Positions 4,020 to 26,381 of a stretch of DNA of 64,000 nt are shown here, in pieces; the stretch's first letter is position 1; each line of letters opens with the position of its first letter. The position numbers and the translations under genes are program-made. Origin of the DNA: Candidatus Bathyarchaeota archaeon (GTDB lineage: Archaea > Thermoproteota > Bathyarchaeia > 40CM-2-53-6 > RBG-13-38-9); NCBI GenBank assembly GCA_963807605.1, contig CAWECG010000003.1, positions 32,001 to 96,000 on the forward strand, given 5' to 3'. A model generated the notes under the pieces. It did not search any database. It had not been told where the DNA came from and worked only from the letters and a program-made list of their open reading frames with translations.

Positions 4020-4161
4020 ATCCATATCGCCAGTGACAAACCCTTTATTCTGGAAACCACGAACTAGGCAAGAGAAACACCACAAGACTGCATAGAGTCG
4101 GGAATGAAAAGGGAAATGAAAATGTAGGCGGTCGCACCACTCCAGCAATGAATAGATACAA
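4020..4161 (+). repeat. ~142-bp dispersed repeat with a tRNA-Gly-like 3' end (att remnant); copy 2 at 21054-21195, partial copy at 27902-27940
   Basis: Near-identical sequence in both copies; GGCGG(T/C)CGCACCA followed by CTC(C/T)AGCAATGAATAGATAC. Confidence 0.85.
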
Positions 4162-7609: not shown

Positions 7610-7685
7610 ACTTACACGTGTAATTTACACGTCGATTTCCAGACTTACACGATCCAGCTATAACGCCGTTATTCCCTATATCCCC
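7610..7685 (+). mobile_element. Casposon-like terminus remnant A1 (CACGT iterons ... CCTATATCCCC)
   Basis: About 85-90% identical by eye to 9310-9383 and 17710-17786. Abuts the core at 7686-7699. Confidence 0.7.
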
Positions 7686-7824
<139 letters not shown>

Positions 7825-7865
7825 ACCTGCTTAGCGCCCTTGTGGTAAAGAAGGTGTGGCGCTCT

Positions 7866-8633
7866 TTAGGTCAGAACTTTCTCTTGTATGAAGGCGCCGT
7901 GCCAGGTGTGGTACCATACCTGACCGGTGTAGCCGTTGACGCTTAACATTCCGTATATCTTGCCATCCTTGAGGACGTGCAGGGTATAGTATCCGTAGAA
8001 GGTTTCTGGTTCTTCTAGTGAGGCGCCTGGAAGGTTCGAGTCTAGGTAGGTTTGGGCTAGCTGCTTTGCATCTGTCTTTGTAACCGACATATTAGCTGTA
8101 GGCACTCCACTGTATGGTTGGTAGCCCCATCCACGGCCCATCATTCCTCCGCCTTGACTCCAGCCACCACCCATAGGGCCCCAACCGGCCATCTGTCCGT
8201 ACTTGGTGTTCCACATCATGCTTGGCCCTTGCTCTAGATGGATTATTCCCATCATCCCGCCCATTCCGCTTAGGCCGACTGCTTTCTCGATGATTCCTTC
8301 GAAGGCGTCGATCCCTGTGCTCTTCTCGTAGGCAATGAAGTAGTAGTTATACTGGAACTCCATGATCTCTTTGACGGCTAAGTCAGGGTATCCTAAGGAT
8401 GCTACCCAGATCTTCGCCACCTGTGCTGCCTCATTGATATTCCTTGGAATTGCCGGGTAGGGTTGGTAGGATCCTGTAGTTGGAGTTGGAAATGTTGGGA
8501 AGGGAGTCGTTTGCGCTGGAAATGTAGTTATCTGGCCTGTGTATGTTGGTGCCCATTGTACTGTTGAGAATGCGGCTAACCCTACGATGCCTATTATGAT
8601 TAGGACTACTCCAAGCAGGATCCTTCTGTTCAT
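7866..8633 (-). CDS. Secreted PepSY-like protein with Met/Gly-rich segment
   Basis: N-terminal TM, PSMMWNTKYG, FYGYYT, GMLSVNGYTGQVWYHTWHG. Confidence 0.75.
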   Translation of the reverse strand: MNRRILLGVVLIIIGIVGLAAFSTVQWAPTYTGQITTFPAQTTPFPTFPTPTTGSYQPYPAIPRNINEAAQVAKIWVASLGYPDLAVKEIMEFQYNYYFIAYEKSTGIDAFEGIIEKAVGLSGMGGMMGIIHLEQGPSMMWNTKYGQMAGWGPMGGGWSQGGGMMGRGWGYQPYSGVPTANMSVTKTDAKQLAQTYLDSNLPGASLEEPETFYGYYTLHVLKDGKIYGMLSVNGYTGQVWYHTWHGAFIQEKVLT

Positions 8634-8646
8634 TCTGTTGCTCCTC

Positions 8647-9039
8647 TTAGGAGAGTTCCTGCTTCATTCGTTCGTAGTCTTCTTTTGTTATCTCGCCCTT
8701 GGCATATCGTTCCTTTAGGATCTCAAGTGGTCTGTTGCTTGGTGCTGGACTCGCGGGTGCTGGTCTGCCTCCGCCTACGAGGTAGTAGATTCCAAACGCT
8801 ATCAGACCGATGAAGATCAGGAATACGATTATTCGGACGATTGCGCCGAGCCAGTTGAAGCCGTAACCATAGCCATATCCTCCATAGCCCATCATGCCAC
8901 CGTACCCACCGTTCGGGCCGTAGCCACCCATCATGCCTGGGCCCATAAAACCTCCTCCCATGAACATCAAGGGCCCTGCGAAGACTATTATCAAGATAAT
9001 GACTAGGAGGATGATCCAACCGCTGCTTCTATCGCTCAT
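8647..9039 (-). CDS. SHOCT-domain membrane protein with GMMG repeats
   Basis: Two TMs; C-terminal LEILKERYAKGEITKEDY. Confidence 0.85.
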   Translation of the reverse strand: MSDRSSGWIILLVIILIIVFAGPLMFMGGGFMGPGMMGGYGPNGGYGGMMGYGGYGYGYGFNWLGAIVRIIVFLIFIGLIAFGIYYLVGGGRPAPASPAPSNRPLEILKERYAKGEITKEDYERMKQELS

Positions 9040-9309
9040 ATGTTCATCTCAGTTTATTTTGTGTTCAAAGCTCGATAAAACCATGTTGTTCCTCATCGAG
9101 AAGGTTATTCCAAAGAACCCTTTTCTTACACACTATTTAGCAACATCCTGTATTTGTTGGACGCAGGGTATCACAGACTATTTAGGGAGTTTTCAGAATT
9201 TAGCCCACTTCGCCACCAAATCTAACCCAAATAGTGGCCCCGGAAGTCAAGCTGAATCATATTTCTTTCCAAGAAAACAGACTAACATGCATTTGGGATA
9301 CTAGCACAA

Positions 9310-9400
9310 TTACACGTGATATTTACACGTCGAATTTCAGACTTCCACGATCCAGCCATAACCCCGTTATTACCTATATCCCCATCACCGAGGGGCACAC
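9310..9400 (+). mobile_element. Casposon-like terminus A2 + array site 3 (core ATCACCGAGGGGCA, 9384-9397)
   Basis: GTTATTACCTATATCCCC directly followed by a core 11/14 identical to consensus. Confidence 0.7.
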
Positions 9401-9959: not shown

Positions 9960-10298
9960 ATTAAATGACTGTTTTCAATCACAAATTTAAGCTTGGTGTG
10001 CACTTAACACAGCGTGTGCGCTAGAAACCATACGCGCGCGCACTACAATAACGGCTCGCTACGCTCGCCGAGTCCGAAGAACGGATGAATTGCGATTCTA
10101 CTGTCTCTCGATTCAGTTGGAGCGTTCAAAGTACTTTCTAAAATCACTTTCAGGCGTGAGCGATCAAGCGACGCATCGCCTGGCGGAAACGTTCCTCGCT
10201 CTCACGCAGGACTTGCTCCGCGTTCTTTTGCCGGGTAATGTCTCGCGCAATTGTTGAAGCACCAACTATCTTGTCGGCAGAATTTGAACTCTAGTTTT

Positions 10299-10329
10299 GT
10301 GTGTGCTCACCAGCTATGGCGACGACGAC
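10299..10329 (+). repeat. Array site 4: GTGTGTG - CTCACCAGCTATGG - CGACGACGAC
   Basis: Read directly. Confidence 0.9.
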
Positions 10330-10417
10330 CAAAAGCGCGCTCTTCCGTTTTGGAGTATAGGTGGATAGCAAAGAGATTTAAAATATTCTAATAATAATTT
10401 CAGTCTGGGGATTAAGA

Positions 10418-11026
10418 ATGGCAAACCCAACAGACGGAAAATTGAACTTGCTGACTGATAAGAACAGCGTTTTGATATTAGTTGACTATCAACCTTCGAT
10501 GTTCAAGAGCGTTAGTTCGGGGGACAAAACAATAATTAAGAAGGCGACAATTTGTGCAGCAAAAGCCGCAAGCATCCTAGGAGTTCCTGTCGTTTTGTCG
10601 TCAATTAATCCTAAATCTCTAGGGGAGTTTATTCCAGAAATCACTAAATTGTTTCCAGAGCAGGAAGTATTTGCACGAAAGATACCGAGTTTTGATGCTT
10701 TTGAAGATGAGAGAACCTGGAGTGCTGTCAAGAAATCAGGGAGAAAGAAATTAGTTATTTCAGGATTGTGGACAAGTATGTGCTTTGCGTACACCGCTCT
10801 TCATGCTTTGAAAGAAGGGTACGAAGTTTATGGATTAATTGATGCTGCTGGTGATTCTACACTTGATGCGCATAGATACGGCGTCGAGAGAATGTTACAG
10901 GCTGGAGTAATTCCAATTACTGTAGAGTCATTGGTGTCGGAATGGATGCACGACTGGGGAAATCCAAAAGCAGGCGAGCTTGTTAAAGAAGTTTATTCGA
11001 AGTATGGCGCAATGATTGGACTGTAA
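10418..11026 (+). CDS. Isochorismatase-family hydrolase (YcaC-like)
   Basis: LVDYQP, GLWTSMC, EGYEVY..DA.G. Confidence 0.88.
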   Translation: MANPTDGKLNLLTDKNSVLILVDYQPSMFKSVSSGDKTIIKKATICAAKAASILGVPVVLSSINPKSLGEFIPEITKLFPEQEVFARKIPSFDAFEDERTWSAVKKSGRKKLVISGLWTSMCFAYTALHALKEGYEVYGLIDAAGDSTLDAHRYGVERMLQAGVIPITVESLVSEWMHDWGNPKAGELVKEVYSKYGAMIGL

Positions 11027-11106
11027 CTCCAGTTGAAATGAATTGTTGCTAAACCTACTCCCTATTTTTTTACCTAGTAATTGATCAAAAACATCTTCTC
11101 TAATGT

Positions 11107-11307
11107 TGTGTGTGCGCACGATCTCTTGGTGCGAGCATCCAAATTTGGACTAGTATGTGTGTGTGCCATAGTTGGTGAGGAGCATCTGAAATTGAACTGT
11201 TAGAGCAGGATTTTTGTGTGTGTGCTCACCAAGGGATGCACACACACACAAAATCAATACCAAGCGGTTCAATTCTAGATGCTCTCACCAGCTAAGGCAC
11301 ACACACA
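11107..11307. repeat. Compact mini-array: four cores (11120, 11166, 11225, 11284) with 32/45/45-bp inserts
   Basis: Read directly. Each insert has a (CA)n end and an AGCATC..AATT(T)G(A/G)AC end. Confidence 0.85.
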
Positions 11308-11747
11308 AATCATAATCTAATGGCTCGCTACCCTCGCCAAAGCATCAAGAGCTTGATAACCTCCGGCTTCAGCAGTTTTATTTCGATACGAGTTGGCGCG
11401 AATCAGTCGCAGAAAGTTCCTGGCTTCAGGAGCCGTATGTGCGGCAGCTTTCGGTTCAGGTTACACATGGAGGGACAAGCTGTCCTCGCTGACAGAGATG
11501 TTTCATGACCATACTGATAATGTGGATGAATCACCGTAATCTATTCAATTACATCAGGCGAATTGACAGGAGGTTCATACTCTTCAATGGCCTCTTGCTT
11601 TTGTTCGTCACTGTGATTCCATTTCCACATCCCTCGTGGCAGAGCATATACTGAGCAATGATGCCAATATTCTTCACCCTAACGATCAAAGAATCATAAG
11701 AACAGCGGTAACTTCTTGCGTATTCTTCAGTAATACATCAAAGGGTA

Positions 11748-12356
11748 CTAGTCATCATCCAGAGTATGCTTGTGTCTATGATGAGTATCTGACCAATGAA
11801 CATGACTGTGAGTCACTTCAAGGTGCGTATGGTCGTGAATGTTCGACTCAGAAACTGTTTCAGAATGTTTGTGTAGATGATGCATTTCACCATGATCGTG
11901 CAGATGAATATGGGTCATCGTGTCATGATAATGAAGATGTAAATGCTCTTCACTCACTATCAACCAAACTCCAATTATCATAAATCCTGTCGCTGGAAAC
12001 ATCACCCATCCTATCCATTCCCTGAGTATGAATAGAGAGGTCACAGCGGCGATGAATGGTGCGAGACTAAAGAATGCTCCAGTCCTGGATGAGCCTAATC
12101 CTTCAAGAGCTTTGATGAAGAATACCAAACTCGCACCATAACTAAAAGCGCCCACCAGAAGGGCAAACACAATCGTGGCATCCAGCGGTATCCTCGTTCC
12201 AAGCATTAAAGCAAATGAAAGAGACACGGCTCCAGCGATTCGGCCTTTGATTTCAGCGAGCTGTACCGGATCTTTGTCGGATAGGTTGCGAGTCAAATTA
12301 TTGTCTACACCCCAACATACCATTGCAAAGACAAGCAATAATGGACCTAGTGGCAT
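11748..12356 (-). pseudogene. EamA/DMT transporter with His-rich C-terminus, 5'-truncated
   Basis: CWGVDNNLTR, GAFFSLAPF and HxHxH tail; only the second EamA repeat is present. Confidence 0.75.
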
Positions 12357-12643
12357 GAACCTGCCTTGGCAAGGATCCCGCGTCTTCAGTTTGGAATTAG
12401 GTGCGTTATCCGTAATCTACCTGAAGTCTTACGTAATTTGGTTTTACGAATTCCAGTTTTCAAAACGAAGAGAGATGTACTTGAGTTTCCTTTGGTCGGA
12501 TTCTGCCTTGGGAAAGAATCCTAATTATCAATTTCACGCTTCAATAAACCAATATGAACCGATGAAACTTCAGAGATCTCTTGAAGAGGCCAGATACCCC
12601 CCTTCTGATAAGCTAATTAAGATCACTACAAAAATGATGATAT

Positions 12644-13540
12644 ATGAAGCTCACAGAGGATATTAATGCACTAAAGAAAAAGAAGAACGCAATTATCCTC
12701 GTGCACAATTATCAGGCACCTGAGATATATGAAATCGCAGATTTCATAGGTGATTCCTTAGAACTCAGTAGAAAAAGTACTGGTACAGATGCAGATTACA
12801 TCATATTCTGTGGAGTAGACTTCATGGCGGAGACCGCCTCCATACTAAACCCGACCAAGACTATTTTGCTCCCTGTTCTGCAAGCACAGTGCCCTATGGC
12901 GGCAATGGCTGATGCTGAAGGAGTCAGGATGCTGAAAAAACAGTATCCCGATGCAGCCGTAGTAAGCTATGTAAACACATCAGCAGAGGTTAAAGCTGAA
13001 TCCGACATCTGTTGCACCAGCGCAAACGCTGTTCAAGTCGTGAACTCACTGAGCCAAGAGAAAGTGATCTTCGTCCCTGATGAAAACCTTGCACTATACG
13101 TTGCAGAGCATACCAAGAAACGCATAATTTCTTGGAAAGGCTGGTGCTATGTTCACACAAAATTCTCGGTAGAAGGGTTAAAGGGAGCCCGAAGACTGCG
13201 TCCGAATGCTGAAGTTATTGTGCATCCTGAATGCAGAACTGAGATCATCGATCTCGCCGACTATGTCTGCAGCACAAGCCAGATGATGAGACGGGTAGGA
13301 GAAAGCAATAAGGATGAATTCATAATTGGAACAGAGGTGGGGATGATAGAACGGTTGAAAATGGAATACCCGACCAAAACCTTCTACGCCGTGCCGCCTG
13401 GAGCTACTTGCATTCAAATGAAGAAGAACAGACTTGAATCAGTTCTAGAAGCATTAGAAAAAGAACAATATGTGATAAATGTCCCTGAGGAAGTGAGATT
13501 GAAAGCTAAGAAAGCCTTGGATATGATGCTAGCACTTTGA
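12644..13540 (+). CDS. nadA: Quinolinate synthase
   Basis: HNYQ, GDSLEL, FCGVDFMAE, CPMA, YVNTSA, HPEC. Confidence 0.95.
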   Translation: MKLTEDINALKKKKNAIILVHNYQAPEIYEIADFIGDSLELSRKSTGTDADYIIFCGVDFMAETASILNPTKTILLPVLQAQCPMAAMADAEGVRMLKKQYPDAAVVSYVNTSAEVKAESDICCTSANAVQVVNSLSQEKVIFVPDENLALYVAEHTKKRIISWKGWCYVHTKFSVEGLKGARRLRPNAEVIVHPECRTEIIDLADYVCSTSQMMRRVGESNKDEFIIGTEVGMIERLKMEYPTKTFYAVPPGATCIQMKKNRLESVLEALEKEQYVINVPEEVRLKAKKALDMMLAL

Positions 13541-15021
13541 AGACGGACATCCTGATAATCGGCAGTGGAATAGCAGGCCTTTGCTTTGCATTCAAGGCAA
13601 TGGATTATGGCAAGATAATAGTCCTCACGAAGAAGAGCGCTGCAGAGTCTAATACCAACTATGCTCAAGGAGGAATCGCTGCAGCCATAGGCGAGGATGA
13701 CTCCCCCCAGCTTCACTTCCAAGACACAGTAAGAACTGGTTGTGGCCTGTGCGATGAGAATGCTGTGAAGACTCTGGTAGAGAACGGACCCGATGTTGTA
13801 AGAGAGCTCGTATCACTCGGAGTCAAAATTGACCAGGATGATAAAGGCGGACTTTCGCTAAGTAGGGAAGCAGGTCATAGCAGGAACAGGATTGTCCATG
13901 TTGGGGATAGAACAGGAAGAGCAATTGAAAGGGCATTAGTAGCTAAGGTCAGAAGAGGAAAATCGATAGAGATCTATGAAGACTGTCTCACCATTGACTT
14001 GATCGTTGACAACAGACGGTGCTATGGCGCTAAAGTGTTAGATGTTATGACTCGAAAGATTTTCAATATCTATTCTAAGGTTACAGTTCTGGCGACTGGT
14101 GGAATAGGACAGGTATACCAGAGGACATCGAATCCGAAGGTTGCGACGGGGGACGGGATCGCTATGGCCTATAGGGCAGGAGCAACTATCAAAGATATGG
14201 AGTTCATACAGTTTCACCCAACCACCTTCCACAAAGATTGTAAAGTGGCCTTTCTAATTTCCGAGACTCTCCGTGGCGAGGGAGCCATTTTAAGAAACGA
14301 GTCTGGACAGGCGTTTATGGCATCATATGATGAGAGGGGGGATTTGACACCCCGTGACATCGTTTCCAGAGCTGTATTCAACGAAATGAAGAAAGGCTCT
14401 GTATACGTTGACATCAGGCATAGGGGAGAGAAATTCATCAAAGAACGTTTCCCCTATCTCTATCGCAGATGCCTACATTACGGCGTGAATATCACCAAAG
14501 ACCTCATACCAGTGACTCCAGCAGCCCACTACCTTTGCGGAGGCATCAAGACAAACATCTATGGCGAAACAGATGTTGAAAGGTTACTCGCCTTCGGCGA
14601 GTGTGCTTGTACATGTGTGCATGGAGCGAATCGTTTAGCTAGCAACTCTTTACTGGAATCAATTGTCTTCAGCTTCATGGCCGCGAAGAGAATCAAGAAT
14701 TATCTTGACACTAGTGTGCATGAAGTTGAGGCTAAACCTTCTAGAATTAGGATCATCAGAGGATCTCGAAAGACTCAGAAGATTAAGAGAGAGTTGCAGA
14801 AGTTGATGTGGACCCATGTTGGCATAGTGAGAGAGGAGAGAGGGCTTGAATATGCCTTAAAGAACCTTGGTGAACTTGAGGCCGAGACTTACAAGATTGC
14901 CGAAGAGGGATTGAGCCCAGACCTGATAGAATTAAAGAACATGATAACAGTTTCCAGACTAATCACCCAAGCAGCATTGGATAGGCGGGAGAGTGTAGGC
15001 ACCCACTATATTCTCCGGTAA
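13537..15021 (+). CDS. nadB: L-aspartate oxidase
   Basis: GSGIAG, YAQGGIA, QFHPT, PAAHY.CGG, HGANRLASNSLLE. Confidence 0.95.
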   Translation: MKTDILIIGSGIAGLCFAFKAMDYGKIIVLTKKSAAESNTNYAQGGIAAAIGEDDSPQLHFQDTVRTGCGLCDENAVKTLVENGPDVVRELVSLGVKIDQDDKGGLSLSREAGHSRNRIVHVGDRTGRAIERALVAKVRRGKSIEIYEDCLTIDLIVDNRRCYGAKVLDVMTRKIFNIYSKVTVLATGGIGQVYQRTSNPKVATGDGIAMAYRAGATIKDMEFIQFHPTTFHKDCKVAFLISETLRGEGAILRNESGQAFMASYDERGDLTPRDIVSRAVFNEMKKGSVYVDIRHRGEKFIKERFPYLYRRCLHYGVNITKDLIPVTPAAHYLCGGIKTNIYGETDVERLLAFGECACTCVHGANRLASNSLLESIVFSFMAAKRIKNYLDTSVHEVEAKPSRIRIIRGSRKTQKIKRELQKLMWTHVGIVREERGLEYALKNLGELEAETYKIAEEGLSPDLIELKNMITVSRLITQAALDRRESVGTHYILR

Positions 15022-15101
15022 TCTTTTTTCGAGTATACCAAGACAATCACTACTGCAAGGGATTTCATAAGATATTGTAAACAACTCATTGGGAGTTATA
15101 G

Positions 15102-15938
15102 ATGAGAGCAAATGAAATAATTGAAATGGCTCTGAATGAAGATCGTTGCGATGAAGATATTACTACTAACGCTCTAATCCCTGAAGGTTCTAAGACGAAA
15201 GGAGCTATTTATGCAGAAGAAAGCGGTGTAATTGCAGGTTTAGAGGCAGCACGAGACGTCTTCCGCTATGATGACTCAGACGTGACCTTCACGCCTCTGG
15301 TAAGAGACGGTGACTATGTTCGCTCTGGTCAAAGACTTGCTGAAGTTGAAGGTGATGCTAGAGTAATTTTGTCACGCGAAAGAGTTGCGCTAAACTTTCT
15401 CCAGCATCTCTCTGGCATAGCTACTGCTACAAACAGATATGTGAAGAAAGCTGGGAAAACCATAATCTTAGACACTAGAAAAACAACCCCAGGGTTGCGT
15501 GAATTGGAGAAGTATGCGGTGAGAATAGGGGGCGGATATAACCATCGATTGAGTCTAGCTGAGATGGGTATGATCAAGGATAACCATATTGCATTTATTG
15601 GAAGTATCAAAAAAGCGGTGAAGCTTGTCAGAGGGTACTCACACAAGAAGATTGTGGTAGAAACTAAAACGATTAATGAAGTACTGGAGGCAGTAGAAGC
15701 CAAACCTGACAGGATAATGTTAGATAATATGTCCCTTAAAGAAATGAAAAAGGCCATAGAGATCATACGCTCAGCCAATACCAGGATAGAGATAGAGGTC
15801 TCCGGAGGCGTTACATTAGAGAATATTGCGGAGATCGCAAAGCTCGAACCCGACTATGCCTCCTGTGGAGCGTTGACCCATTCAGTTAAGGCATTAGAAA
15901 TGAGTTTAGAGCTAGACCAAACTATTGCCAACCGTTAA
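15102..15938 (+). CDS. nadC: Quinolinate phosphoribosyltransferase
   Basis: ERVALN, DTRKTTPG, KDNH, MLDN. Confidence 0.95.
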   Translation: MRANEIIEMALNEDRCDEDITTNALIPEGSKTKGAIYAEESGVIAGLEAARDVFRYDDSDVTFTPLVRDGDYVRSGQRLAEVEGDARVILSRERVALNFLQHLSGIATATNRYVKKAGKTIILDTRKTTPGLRELEKYAVRIGGGYNHRLSLAEMGMIKDNHIAFIGSIKKAVKLVRGYSHKKIVVETKTINEVLEAVEAKPDRIMLDNMSLKEMKKAIEIIRSANTRIEIEVSGGVTLENIAEIAKLEPDYASCGALTHSVKALEMSLELDQTIANR

Positions 15939-16446
15939 AACATTCTGACGAACCTAAATTCTGTCTTCAGAAGAATCACAATGATACGTAGGTTGTGACC
16001 CCTGAGCCGCCCACCAGAACTGATTGGACGGGAGTTACATCTCTCCATAGCGCGATGGTATGGGAAGTGTTTTTGCAGAGGAGGCGCTCATGCTATCCTA
16101 TTGGCGCCTGCGTTTATGGGTTGGATCTGAATGACTCAATTCATGCAACAATCTTGAGGTAGTTGATAGAAAGAAGATTATTGACGAATGGATAATTATG
16201 TTATTGTCAGGCCTAGACCAGCGATCCTTCTTATGCAAAAGCGTTCCGGCCATACTAAAGAGGTGACTAAATTGAAAAAACCGACTCCAATTCGAATGAG
16301 AAAAATCCTGACAATGACCTCTCTCAGGACCAACTTAGACTTCTTGATCAAGCAATCGATGATCAAAACGACAAATGCACTTCTCGATCGTCAATCATTC
16401 GGAGTCTAATTGATGAGTACCTTCCAAAGCCCAGGAGCAAATAAAA

Positions 16447-16678
16447 TTGAGTATCTCAACTCCGGAGCTATCTAAAACCCAGATAGGGATCATCGGCGAA
16501 TACTCTCTGGACCAAGCAATCAAAGAACTGTTCGAGCAATATCCAGGACTCGAATATCAAAGCCACTTAGACGGATCCCTGCAGGATAAAAGAATCGACG
16601 GACTAGTCCTTTTAGACAACAAATCCGTTGAACTTGAAATTGCAAATTGCTCTACTCACTACGCGATCTTTCTTCCAT
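16447..16678 (+). pseudogene. Truncated hypothetical (possibly PD-(D/E)xK-like) gene
   Basis: RIDGLV..ELEI; the frame runs into transposase sequence at GCGCG (16679). Confidence 0.35.
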
Positions 16679-17070
16679 GCGCGGCCCCCAGTACTCCAGC
16701 GAAGCCTTCAGGAACGAGGCAAGACGCCTAGGCGTAGAACCAGTTCATACCATACCCTAGAAACCAGATGAAGGGCAAACAGGTTCTACGAATCGACCGG
16801 AAGTTCCGCTCACACGGACCTGCCCGTCTGGAGCAAATGATCCGACACAGAACTGCAGTAGAGAGTCACATCTCGACTCAAAGAACACTATGGACTACGA
16901 CAGCTTCGAACACGCGGCCTAAGAAACGTCTACACACACGTAATCCTATGCTTGAATGCTATGCTGGCCACCGCTCTATCTGCGATCAAACATGGAAGCA
17001 TCCATAAGATGCGGTCACCAATCCAGTTCACAAAATTGACAGGTAAGACATAATATTGCAAGAGGCTAGC
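16679..17070 (+). mobile_element. DDE transposase C-terminal remnant (IS5/IS4-like)
   Basis: QYSSEAFR..LGVEPV-IPYP..RTAVE across frameshifts; bounded by short GCGCG runs. Confidence 0.55.
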
Positions 17071-17154
17071 GCGTTCTATCAGTAGACTTTTTCTACGACA
17101 GCTGATAAAATGCAGAGACCTGCACCCAGGATGATAATTCTGAACAGAAAATTC

Positions 17155-17598
17155 TCAACTGCCAACAGCAATCCGACCCAAGCAAGAAAGAAACCAGCCC
17201 ACCCAATTACATGAAATATCCACTTTCCCAACTGTATGATTACCCCACCACTTTTCTATCGGTGCAAGTTTGACTCCCAGGTCTTCCCTTAAGGCTCTGA
17301 TCAATCTCTCCCTCCGCGCCTTATCCTTTATGATCTGATCAATAACAGCATCCACATCCTTCGAGGATGCAGAGTTAAGAATCATCCCGCAGCTGCTGCA
17401 GTAGACCGCTACAGGCGCATTCTCAGTCTGGCAGCCTGGACACATCTGAATCATGACTATAGGCCTAAGAACCTCCTCCTCCTTCCTCTTGAGGCCGTGA
17501 AGAACCAAGTCCTTATCATCAACATTCTGCATCGTCAAGTGGGTGTAGACCCTGACGATATCCGGTCTACGCCAGCCGAATAACTTCATCAATTCTCG
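17155..17598 (-). pseudogene. Tyrosine integrase C-terminal fragment with zinc ribbon
   Basis: ELMKLFGW...VYTHL (catalytic W/Y region) and CPGC..YCSSCG. Confidence 0.75.
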
Positions 17599-17709
17599 AC
17601 ATATGTGATGCCACTGCGTACTCGAGATTGATTATAGACGAAGCGCCTGAGGCATTAGAAGCTTTGCATTTTACGAAAGCTGGGAGAGCGTTAGTGTGCG
17701 CTAGGGCAG

Positions 17710-17831
17710 ATTTCCACGTGGCAATTTACACGTCGATTTTCAGACTTCCACGATCCAGCCATAACACCGTTATTACCTATATCCCCCTCACCAAGGGATA
17801 CGACGACGATATCCCTTGGTGAGCACACACA
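17710..17831. mobile_element. Casposon-like terminus A3 + inverted core pair (17787-17800 / 17810-17823) around CGACGACGA, then (CA)4
   Basis: Read directly; the two cores form a perfect 14-bp inverted repeat. Confidence 0.8.
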
Positions 17832-19815: not shown

Positions 19816-19970
19816 TGTCCATGTGGATGTCCACGTCGGAAAACCAGCATCCACGTGACCACACCAAACAGCCAGTTATCTATATCCCCCTCACCAGCTA
19901 ATGCACACACACAAAAATTAACCTGCTCTAACGGTGCAAATTACGATGCTCACCAACTGGAGCACAGACA
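19816..19970 (+). mobile_element. Casposon-like terminus A4 + two direct cores (19890-19903, 19949-19962) with a 45-bp insert
   Basis: CCACGT iterons and TATATCCCC; the insert is homologous to 11180-11224 (reverse complement). Confidence 0.75.
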
Positions 19971-20782: not shown

Positions 20783-20893
20783 CATGACGTGCAAGATGTC
20801 CTTCGTTCTAGGATATTCTATGGTGGCTTTGAAGTGTCTTAGACTCTTGAAGCTGATCTTTTGTATTCTAGGGTTTTGCATCTTCTCTGCTAT
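20783..20893 (-). pseudogene. Tyrosine integrase internal fragment
   Basis: IAEKMQNPRIQKISFKSLRHFKATIEY..TKDILHVM (LRH motif). Confidence 0.7.
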
Positions 20894-21050
20894 CTTCTCT
20901 GACCAAGTCCGGAACAGGTTTGTCAAAATCGATTTGTTTTGTTTTTCCGAGAATGAAAATCGCCAGTTCCTGAGTTTTCAACATTATCATGCTATCCCAC
21001 CGATAGTATTTGTTTCGGTGTAATACAGGAGAATTGAAGGAAAACCTCAG
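20883..21050 (-). pseudogene. cas1: Casposase (Cas1-solo) C-terminal fragment
   Basis: LRFSFNSPVLHRNKYYRWDSMIMLKTQELAIFILGKTKQIDFDKPVPDLVREDS resembles the casposase pattern W..(I/V)..K..ELA.(Y/F)(I/L).GK...(L/I)DF..P...R.D (from memory). Not in the ORF track. Confidence 0.7.
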
Positions 21051-21286
21051 CTAATCCATATCGCCAGTGACAAACCCTTTATTCTGGAAACCACGAACTA
21101 GGCTAGAGAAACACCACAAGACTGCATAGAGTCGGGAATGAAAAGGGAAATGGAAATGTAGGCGGCCGCACCACTCTAGCAATGAATAGATACAATTAAC
21201 GCGCGCGTACATGTATGAAGGGGAGCAGGGTCATGTATCCATTGCACAAAGCCGCGGGCGTCTCGATAGCTAAGGCGGATCTGCCA

Positions 21287-21986: not shown

Positions 21987-22020
21987 GTGTGTGTGCCTTG
22001 CTGGTGAGCGACGACGACGA
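21987..22020 (-). repeat. Array site: (GT)n - CCTTGCTGGTGAG - (CGA)4
   Basis: Read directly. Confidence 0.9.
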
Positions 22021-22105
22021 AAAAAGATGTGCCTCGCTTCGCTTGGCAGATAATGAAAAGGAAAGTATGCAAGGAAGTTATGAAGAAAGGGAAAGACTGT
22101 TTTGG

Positions 22106-22606
22106 TTAGTCTCTTCTTCTCTTAACCACTACAACCGCGGATAATGCAGCGACTAGTCCTGCTAAGGTTAGGTAGGGTGTTAGAATCTCAAGCTTGTTAG
22201 TTGGTAGGGTGACTCCGCCCACAGGAAAAGTGACTGCATGGAGAATAATGTAATAGTTTTCTCCATTCAGATTGATGCCAAATGGACCCGGAGGGCCGAC
22301 CTGGCCGTAAACTTCGACTAGGTCTCCAACCTGAACATCAGCATAGCCCTGTTGTGGAAATGGAGGACTTACAACAAAGCCAACCTGAACGGTGCTGCCG
22401 ACCGTGAGGCTTCCTGAGCTATCAGAGATTATCTCAAGAATCTGGACATCCCACCAATGTGAACCGATGAGAATCCCCTGATTGGTGACCAAACCTCTGA
22501 TCTTAGCCTCTGTACCGTTAGCGGTAACTACAGGAATTATCGTACTCATAGCGGAGAGAACTAGCAGCATCATTACCGGTGCAAGAACTGAATAATTCTT
22601 ATTCAA
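22106..22606 (-). CDS. Secreted beta-rich protein with PVGG..NKLE-TM-KRRRD tail
   Basis: Signal peptide; tail near-identical to the gene at 1-868. Confidence 0.8.
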   Translation of the reverse strand: MNKNYSVLAPVMMLLVLSAMSTIIPVVTANGTEAKIRGLVTNQGILIGSHWWDVQILEIISDSSGSLTVGSTVQVGFVVSPPFPQQGYADVQVGDLVEVYGQVGPPGPFGINLNGENYYIILHAVTFPVGGVTLPTNKLEILTPYLTLAGLVAALSAVVVVKRRRD

Positions 22607-23783: not shown

Positions 23784-24003
23784 GTGTGTGTGCTCACCAG
23801 CTAGGGCAAACACACTAAACGAATGTCTCGCTCTCGGCTCGCCCTGAAGATTCAGGGGATTCTTCCCCTGACATGAACAGGAGGGATTCATGAACAGGAT
23901 AGGGATGGATTGTGTGTGGGTCTTTTGGTGAGGGGGATATAACATAACGCAGAGTTTTTGGTGTCCACGTGGCTATGCCTGATTGGACGTGGAAGTCCAC
24001 GTG
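23784..24003. mobile_element. Two array sites (23793-23806, 23919-23932) with a 112-bp insert, then casposon-like terminus A5 (GGGGATATA at 23933, opposite orientation)
   Basis: Read directly; CCACGTG iterons at 23965-24003. Confidence 0.75.
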
Positions 24004-26306: not shown

Positions 26307-26381
26307 CTAGTGAGGACACCCAAAATCCCATTATTAGATTCTGTATGTGTGCGTCGTCGTGTCCTTGGTGAGCACACACAC
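26307..26381 (-). repeat. Last array sites: degenerate core (26307-26314), 45-bp insert ending in GTGTG-CGTCGTCG, core TGTCCTTGGTGAG (26360-26372), (CA)4C
   Basis: Read directly. Confidence 0.75.

Follow-up and report, generated by a model that had tools for sequence, protein, structure and literature searches.

A cluster of short repeats with regularly spaced inserts raises the question of whether it is an early form of a CRISPR array or the product of another process. Such a cluster lies at positions 11107-11307 of the window, that is, of the whole 64,000-nucleotide stretch of DNA analysed in this paper, which comes from the genome of a Candidatus Bathyarchaeota archaeon. Casposons are jumping genes that use a Cas1 integrase, and they are the proposed ancestors of the CRISPR adaptation machinery. 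A preliminary description, made from the sequence alone, regarded this cluster as the part of the locus closest to a nascent CRISPR array. Its recurrent 45-bp inserts were attributed either to minimal non-autonomous units or to a length ruler resembling Cas1 spacer sizing. According to the present analysis, the cluster is probably a back-to-back stack of casposon landing pads and casposon-end stubs, rather than a nascent CRISPR array.

Layout of the cluster

As seen in Table 1, the sequence contains four 14-nt cores separated by gaps of 32, 45 and 45 bp, a layout exactly as first described and far beyond chance. The minus strand carries cores 1 and 2, the plus strand cores 3 and 4; the four are thus not direct repeats, and they share only 7-12 of their 14 bases. 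To the left of core 3 lie core 2, a shortened unit with core 1, and then an isochorismatase cassette. Core 2 has its tail-side tip in the (TG)5 run within 11134-11165. To the right of core 3 follow a (CA)6 tip, about 16 nt, a leader, core 4, and then a (CA)n-type element end. The whole of 11107-11307 is non-coding and consists of sites and end stubs, so that it does not represent a casposon itself.

Because the cores lie in two orientations and are mirrored, 11156-11307 forms an imperfect palindrome of 152 nt, with a single-stranded DNA fold of -60 kcal/mol (z = -10.5). Its inverted arms of 42 nt are 77% identical and are without the flanking duplication of a MITE. No second case of this palindromic arrangement was found among the core/tip module strings of the genome. 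In an Rfam search of the cluster, no family reached the threshold; sub-threshold hairpin-like matches to miRNA precursor models reflect the palindrome.

Cores abutting TG or CA runs number 18 in the window (about 12 distinct junctions), compared to 0.02 in 200 dinucleotide-preserving shuffles. The plain motif GCTCTCACCA, with one mismatch allowed, is not enriched in the window (5 observed, 5.07 expected). The enrichment sits in the cores that abut TG/CA runs, and not in the plain motif count.

Table 1. Features of the cluster and related features in the window and genome (positions in the window unless a contig is given)
Feature	Position	Strand	Remark
(TG)4 run	11107-11114	.	Tail side of core 1, 5 nt between
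Core 1, degenerate, head CGCACCA on minus strand	11120-11133	-	7-11/14 identical to other cores
32-bp insert: pad 1 shortened leader + (TG)5	11134-11165	-	About 13 nt missing; 60% identical to 45-bp inserts
Core 2	11166-11179	-	Sequence reading
45-bp insert: pad 2 tRNA-T-loop-like leader, about 17 nt, (TG)5	11180-11224	-	Nearest relative on contig C1 (78%), outside array
Core 3, leaderless, between (TG)5 and (CA)6; palindrome centre	11225-11238	+	Sequence reading and fold
45-bp insert: (CA)6 tip, about 16 nt, pad 4 leader	11239-11283	+	93-96% identical to C1:396962-397031
Core 4, putatively occupied pad	11284-11297	+	13/14 identical to core 23793-23806, which follows a (TG)4 run
(CA)n-type casposon-like left end: (CA)5, 15 nt, subterminal GCTCGCTACCCTCGCC	11298-11338	+	Build shared with >12 core-abutting ends in genome
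Core, then (CGA)3 tip of the type that the Cas1-encoding casposon has	10306-10328	+	Sequence reading
Two perfectly inverted cores around 9-nt (CGA)3 tip	17787-17823	.	Perfect in window copy
Core / 45-bp leader-type insert / core	19890-19962	+	Preceded by ..TATATCCCC-type element end; cores 19890-19903, 19949-19962
Casposase (Cas1) remnant, 58 aa	20877-21050	-	46% identical to intact casposase residues 300-355, E = 1e-16
112-bp miniature element: degenerate (CA) start, subterminal motif, (TG)4 end, between two cores	23807-23918	+	Compare 60-bp element in L030
CGCACCA-type palindromic repeats (outside window)	C1:487161, C1:487837, C2:71693, C2:75084, C3:18193, C3:765418

A dispersed family of putative landing pads

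When 11107-11340 was used as a BLAST query, several dozen short matches were found on four contigs, some of them 93-98% identical. They belong to a unit of about 59 bp, composed of a (CA)n tip, about 15 nt, a block resembling a tRNA T-loop, and a core starting with CTCACCA. The junction of leader and core is complete in about 70 copies genome-wide, and these are clustered. Likewise, a search of the 2.65-Mb genome for the core head combined with a TG run gave 57 hits, which are concentrated in a few islands, one of them covering the first 26.4 kb of the window. Since the inserts are a conserved part of this dispersed unit, they are not unique sequences.

Several details of the pieces cited in the preliminary description were reproduced. 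An AGCATC..GAAC end plus a CA/TG run is present in 4 of the 6 pieces, and 11180-11224, once reverse-complemented, is 77% identical to 19904-19948 (37 of 48 aligned positions). Among the further inserts that it listed, 19904-19948 is a genuine 45-bp piece; 26315-26359 and 10272-10305 do not fit. The former is a leaderless combination of a (CGA)-type tip and a (CA)-type tip whose left 'core' is spurious, and the latter is a leader that has been cut short, its left core being doubtful.

Tips of three types occur at the site, namely (CA)n, (CGA)n, and ..TATATCCCC. A (CA)n run with subterminal GCTCGCTACGCTCGC abuts cores more than 12 times in the genome, including 11298-11338, and for this reason the (CA)n run is read as the tip of one casposon-end class. 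Alternatively, it could be a part of the pad and not an element tip. Beside the Cas1-encoding casposon described below, the (CA)n run leads into unrelated DNA. In two copies on contig C1, homology begins exactly at the outer (CA)n tip and continues through the pad into the next element, which fits element ends that carry a pad. These two copies share both flanks of the inner core but differ in the 7-nt tail of that core, and this difference is predicted by neither nested insertion nor simple decay.

Insert lengths and flanking cores

Leader-type inserts across the genome (n = 29) range from 32 to 60 bp, with a mean of 44.4 and a standard deviation of 6.7. Only 4 of the 29 are exactly 45 bp, and three of these are in the window. 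The distribution has a single, broad peak near 44-45 bp. Differences in length include simple-repeat runs at the tip, such as (CA)n, (CCA)n, and A-runs. The correlation of tip length with the rest of the insert (r = -0.40) is of a kind that the definition of the tip yields by construction. Lengths collected from related genomes, a check suggested in the preliminary description, gave 14 inserts of 37-57 bp and no narrow distribution.

The inserts of the cluster are mutually 57-77% identical and up to 96% identical to copies elsewhere in the genome, and all inserts align as a single family. The 45-bp inserts owe their similar length to homology and not to any measurement. The CRISPR-like spacing is the period of a repeat unit through common descent and not a ruler, and in this sense the useful result for 11107-11307 is a negative one. 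Two outcomes had been named in advance as speaking against a ruler, a flat length distribution and descent of the 45-bp units from one ancestor. The inserts do form one homologous family; the lengths are not flat but single-peaked, although broadly so.

A further explanation derives the cluster from a single 59-bp unit, multiplied on the spot by tandem duplication or replication slippage. A 59-bp start-to-start spacing does recur, and microsatellite-like CA runs, such as (CA)58 at 7707-7822, favour slippage. The units of the window are 60-77% identical to one another, however, and up to 93-96% identical to copies on other contigs, and two of them are inverted relative to the third. Because the nearest relative of an insert is at another locus in 26 of 29 cases, local duplication is excluded as the source. 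This explanation is largely refuted, and what probability it keeps is slight.

If the inserts had been integrated as pieces of DNA at cores, matching cores would be expected on both sides. In the 18 direct cases, the flanking cores are on average identical at 9.3 of 14 positions, whereas random pairs reach 9.6 (P = 0.72). Among all 29 inserts, 11 have an inverted distal core. Around longer elements, at least 13/14 matches occur in 20% of properly configured pairs against 16% of other pairs, a comparison without power, since the cores have only two tail classes. The values for the inserts bear on the idea that the 45-bp pieces are short substrates that a casposase inserted at cores, spacer-like and of preferred length, in a proto-CRISPR array. 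Such an origin is suggested by the in vitro ability of casposases to integrate oligonucleotides down to 6 nt (PMC6977970) and by inserts lying between 14-nt cores with lengths peaking near 44-45 bp. It is further suggested by a 96%-identical insert at another locus between different cores, and by true mini-elements between near-identical cores in L030. Apart from the absent match of flanking cores and the inverted distal cores, it is opposed by the young insert 11239-11283, which sits between cores of different tail classes (9/14) and whose copy at C1:396962-397031 is also flanked by cores other than those of the window. Further points against it are the lengths of 32-60 bp, which differ in simple-repeat tracts, and the descent of all inserts from one family, in contrast to sampled sequences. 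The spacer-like origin is therefore quite unlikely.

In a variant of it, the 45-bp pieces with their leaders would act as mobile mini-substrates for insertion by the casposase at cores. Each would bring a new leader, so that the site copies itself and spreads, and the inverted and mismatched cores would be later rearrangements. This variant is given a similarly low probability. If it were true, casposon transposition and CRISPR spacer acquisition would have a natural intermediate in these self-copying mini-substrates with leaders. As to minimal non-autonomous units, mini-elements with (CA)n..(TG)n ends between cores do exist (23807-23918 and in L030), but the cores flanking the inserts carry no duplication signature.

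Only the sizes suggest a small true CRISPR array, the repeats being about 14 nt plus flanks and the inserts 32-45 bp, and this reading is refuted. Near-identical direct repeats of at least 23 nt, which define such an array, are replaced here by 14-nt cores with 7-12/14 identity, two per strand, and unique spacers of narrow length by the mutually homologous inserts. In a Pfam search of 30 of the larger open reading frames in 104-32716, neither adjacent Cas1-Cas2 or effector genes nor any other cas gene turned up; the nearby Cas1 sequence is a 58-aa fragment at 20877-21050. The Rfam search, as noted, gave no family at threshold. The claim of a nascent CRISPR array is likewise contradicted by dissimilar cores in two orientations, by inserts that are not unique, and by the missing duplication signature.

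The Cas1-encoding casposon of the genome

No intact Cas1 or casposase gene was found in the window. At a distance of 760 kb from the cluster, a 9-kb element at C3:796434-805413 (L004 6434-15413) encodes a Cas1 of 402 aa (C3:803495-804700; PF01867, 168 bits). This element is flanked by a direct repeat of the core that matches at 14 of 14 positions and is a rare core variant. Its tips are inverted (CGA)n runs; outside them, one side has a leader and the other a TG run. The genome thus contains, outside the window, what marks a casposon target site: a direct repeat of 14-15 bp on both sides of an element that encodes Cas1 and has inverted ends. The link to a casposase drawn in the preliminary description was borne out by this element, since the core is its target-site duplication, and by a casposase remnant in the window (Table 1), 9.6 kb from the cluster.

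The element also carries genes for a DUF5677 protein, a SIR2-like protein, and an HTH-containing ATPase. Genes of the latter two kinds are often met with in defence systems. No PolB was found in the element by Pfam. The 402-aa Cas1 matches the structure of the M. mazei casposase (6OPM) over its full length with E = 6e-72, compared to 4e-25 for the best CRISPR Cas1. Judged by this sequence similarity, the casposase of the genome is family-2-like.

Published biochemistry on two casposases is in close agreement. The casposase of A. boonei reads TCAAATC 9-15 bp upstream of the site together with the first bases of the duplication, and its distal cut is fixed by a 14-bp yardstick (PMC6614799). The M. 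mazei casposase requires the duplicated segment and 30 bp of tRNA-Leu, and the ends of its casposon read TATATCCC (PMC6977970). A third class of ends in the window (7610-7685, 9310-9383, 17710-17786, and 19816-19889) shares this M. mazei ending.

The leader resembles the end of a tRNA

For the examination of the leader, 94 cores were selected solely by the tip on their tail side. TTCAAAT, with at most one mismatch, occurs exactly at -16..-10 in 35 of the 94 cores, with a chance expectation of about 0.1. Among these anchored cores, the most conserved positions are the head CTCACCA and the preceding GCT, which are nearly invariant. The distance from the T-loop block to CCA is 16 nt, the same as in the real tRNA genes of the genome, which encode CCA. 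A T-loop motif at a fixed distance upstream, as at family-2-type casposon target sites, is thus present, and its position agrees with the A. boonei data (PMC6614799).

Pairing of the T-stem in the leaders is 0.43, against a random level of 0.375. No tRNA gene with a matching acceptor stem, or 5' acceptor partner, was found in the genome, and no Rfam tRNA match to the leader units was obtained. Because of these three results, the leader is regarded as a mimic of a tRNA end and not as a tRNA gene. They also weigh on the explanation that the units are leftover attachment sites of integrase-type elements that targeted one tRNA gene and copied its 3' part each time. The T-loop-to-CCA geometry of the leader would suit it, as would the recurrence of unrelated tRNA 3'-end fragments (4124-4160 and 21158-21195). 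With a T-stem at random level, no tRNA gene of matching acceptor stem, no integrase gene nearby, and a Cas1 casposon with a 14-bp duplication as the only intact element seen at such a site, this explanation is very unlikely.

The fragments just mentioned are a separate observation. At 4124-4160, 21158-21195, and C4:461880-461925, the same piece is repeated, consisting of a real tRNA 3' end (gene C4:37943-38050) and about 25 nt. These copies may be attachment-site remnants of another integrating element.

Distribution in related genomes

Of 15 genomes of the same family, 12 contained the unit, compared to only 1 of 15 from other families of the order; the genomes being kin, this comparison is supportive and not a statistic. 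The lone positive genome from the other families holds a casposase fragment 70% identical to the present casposase. A family-2-like casposase is present in the lineage, as related MAGs carrying the unit encode relatives of the casposase that are 48-89% identical.

The same arrangement recurs in several relatives. An intact casposase in G013 has next to it a leader, a core, and an end of the ..TATATCCCC type. In L029, a pad and then a (CA)n-type end lie on the casposase side. L030 has a leader and a core, then a 60-bp mini-element whose ends are (CA)n..(TG)n, then another core and a casposon. In G014, a core comes after the end of a real tRNA gene that bears an intron, and (CA)5 and a pseudo-leader unit come next. 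At the DNA level, the isochorismatase and EamA genes that flank the cluster were not found in 30 relatives; only the repeat units matched.

Proposed origin of the cluster

The proposal that the cluster is a stack of landing pads and end stubs builds on the observed repeat family and its geometry, on the identity of the core with the casposon duplication, and on the co-occurrence of unit and casposase in relatives. The cluster would be a junction where casposon-type elements meet back to back, built from copies of the dispersed unit of about 59 bp. The 14-bp core from CTCACCA would be the segment that a casposase cuts at both edges and duplicates on entry of an element. On its head side, the leader of about 19 nt, with TTCAAAT 9 nt before the core, would imitate the stretch of a tRNA gene from T-loop to CCA. 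Family-2 casposases are known to read this region, and by analogy with the two studied enzymes, the casposase of this genome presumably reads it as well. On the tail side, the (CA)n run and about 15 nt would form the tip of one casposon-end class.

Under this proposal, pads 2 and 1 would point to the left and pad 4 to the right, with core 3 alone between (TG)5 and (CA)6. Pad 4 appears occupied, because a casposon-type end starts at 11298. The simplest reading would be that two casposon-type ends abut one shared core, and that each carries or has acquired a landing pad that was itself reused. Clusters may grow by tandem or nested insertion of elements with pads in their ends, although we hold this particular route to be less likely than not. 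Pile-ups of a comparable kind are known from Methanosarcina, in which tandem casposons separated by one shared duplication and solo ends were reported (PMC4779613). Against simple integration it must be noted that direct duplications are expected, yet distal cores are often inverted, as given above, and modules of perfectly inverted cores occur (17787-17823). Modules of this type are unlike any known integration product.

Rearrangement at the cores

A pair of inverted 22-bp repeats at 11215-11238 and 17810-17831, each a (TG)n run and a core, bounds a 6.6-kb segment (11239-17809) with EamA and nadA/nadB/nadC. In one peat metagenome contig, a single contig of low depth, 11121-11237 is joined to the reverse complement of about 17781-17810, which is the expected product of inversion between these repeats. 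As regards an inversion, this junction is a lead only, but it does reveal the cores as breakpoints. To the right of core 3, the contig carries different DNA. Among the contigs of four wetland/peat runs, only short pieces of 88-99% identity were found, and no gain or loss of units at the strain level was seen. Among the public runs listed for 10300-12400, none was an RNA run.

Another explanation takes the cores as the places where a site-specific recombinase crosses over, shuffling and inverting gene cassettes in the manner of integrons or lox sites, with the casposon merely sharing the sites. Both core orientations exist, with inverted TG/CA arms around an asymmetric 14-nt centre, and the homology of a 98%-identical cassette copy begins at a core; the junction in the peat contig also fits. 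Ordinary recombination between 22-bp inverted repeats, however, could equally give the inversion. No recombinase was found by Pfam in 30 of the larger open reading frames of 104-32716, and the five tyrosine recombinase genes of the genome are all outside the window, the nearest about 300 kb away. Moreover, the Cas1 element is bounded by a 14/14 direct duplication, which is not a crossover product, and the unit tracks the casposase across genomes. A recombinase origin is accordingly unlikely.

Comparison with known systems

The nearest counterparts of the cluster are the family-2 casposon targets at tRNA-Pro of A. boonei and tRNA-Leu of M. mazei. Shared with them are a 14-bp duplication starting in the last bases of a tRNA end, a T-loop motif TCAAAT at -15..-10, and a casposase that matches the M. 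mazei enzyme over its full length. One tip type ends in TATATCCCC, as the M. mazei and A. boonei ends do, and elements likewise pile up at one site, as in tandem casposons with one shared duplication. The differences are that the 'tRNA end' is here a mimic without tRNA body or T-stem, that about 70 dispersed copies exist, clustered and in both orientations, that three tip types share the site, and that the Cas1 element is without PolB by Pfam. The solo-TIRs of M. mazei are also short casposon-end remnants at target sites that outnumber full elements. The stub here, (CA)n plus about 15 nt, differs in being joined to the leader at a fixed point, and the joint unit of stub and leader is a multi-copy family with subfamilies.

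With the leader-repeat-spacer arrays of CRISPR, the cluster shares a Cas1-family integrase, a site adjacent to a leader, a duplication of fixed length, and comparable sizes. It differs from them in its dissimilar 14-nt cores in two orientations, its mutually homologous inserts, several leaders per cluster, the absence of Cas2 or an effector, and the absence of a narrow length distribution. Integron attC arrays are similar in that short sites punctuate single accessory genes and in that cassettes recur at other loci (98-99% identical). Unlike in integrons, there is no integrase beside the array, the sites are without attC structure, and the one mobile element seen intact has a duplication on its flanks, a product that attC recombination does not give.

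To our knowledge, casposon target sites have so far been described as single genomic places: a tRNA gene end, aEF-2, and an intergenic site. The literature searched contained no account of casposons in Bathyarchaeia or of tRNA-end mimics that serve in many copies as casposon sites. Here the probable casposon site is itself multi-copy, clustered, and mimics a tRNA end, among small accessory-gene cassettes in a Bathyarchaeia lineage. It offers a natural setting for asking how a Cas1-family integrase chooses its site, how repeated Cas1-driven insertion builds genomic islands, and how a leader and duplicated repeat could become multi-copy before any spacer function.

Related modules and neighbouring features

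Inverted-core modules around a (CGA)n tip of 8-10 nt, comparable to 17787-17823, are also located at C3:386181, C4:721491, and L029 10292-10329. The (CA)58 microsatellite at 7707-7822 directly adjoins a core, and it has matches among CA/TG runs of 30-70 bases at other places in the genome, such as C1:520645-520712. These long runs indicate that (CA)n tips can expand greatly.

Cassettes of the island recur elsewhere. The segment 9385-10032 has a near-duplicate at C1:518464-519110 (98.3%), in which homology starts exactly at a core and the flanks differ, and 11703-12379 has one at C4:73271-73948 (98.5%). These near-identical copies point to recent movement of cassettes between islands. Other copies of the gene pair at 7838-9277 were found to have no bounding cores. 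The 215-bp subterminal region at 22011-22225, which follows a (CGA)n tip, has at least 6 genomic repeats at 80-92% identity and is probably the end of a non-autonomous family of casposon derivatives. At 1585-2001, where the island has its edge, there is a DDE transposase fragment (PF01609). Finally, a separate palindromic family of at least 7 copies, unrelated to the leader units, has inverted CGCACCA-type arms around a constant 14-nt centre (Table 1).
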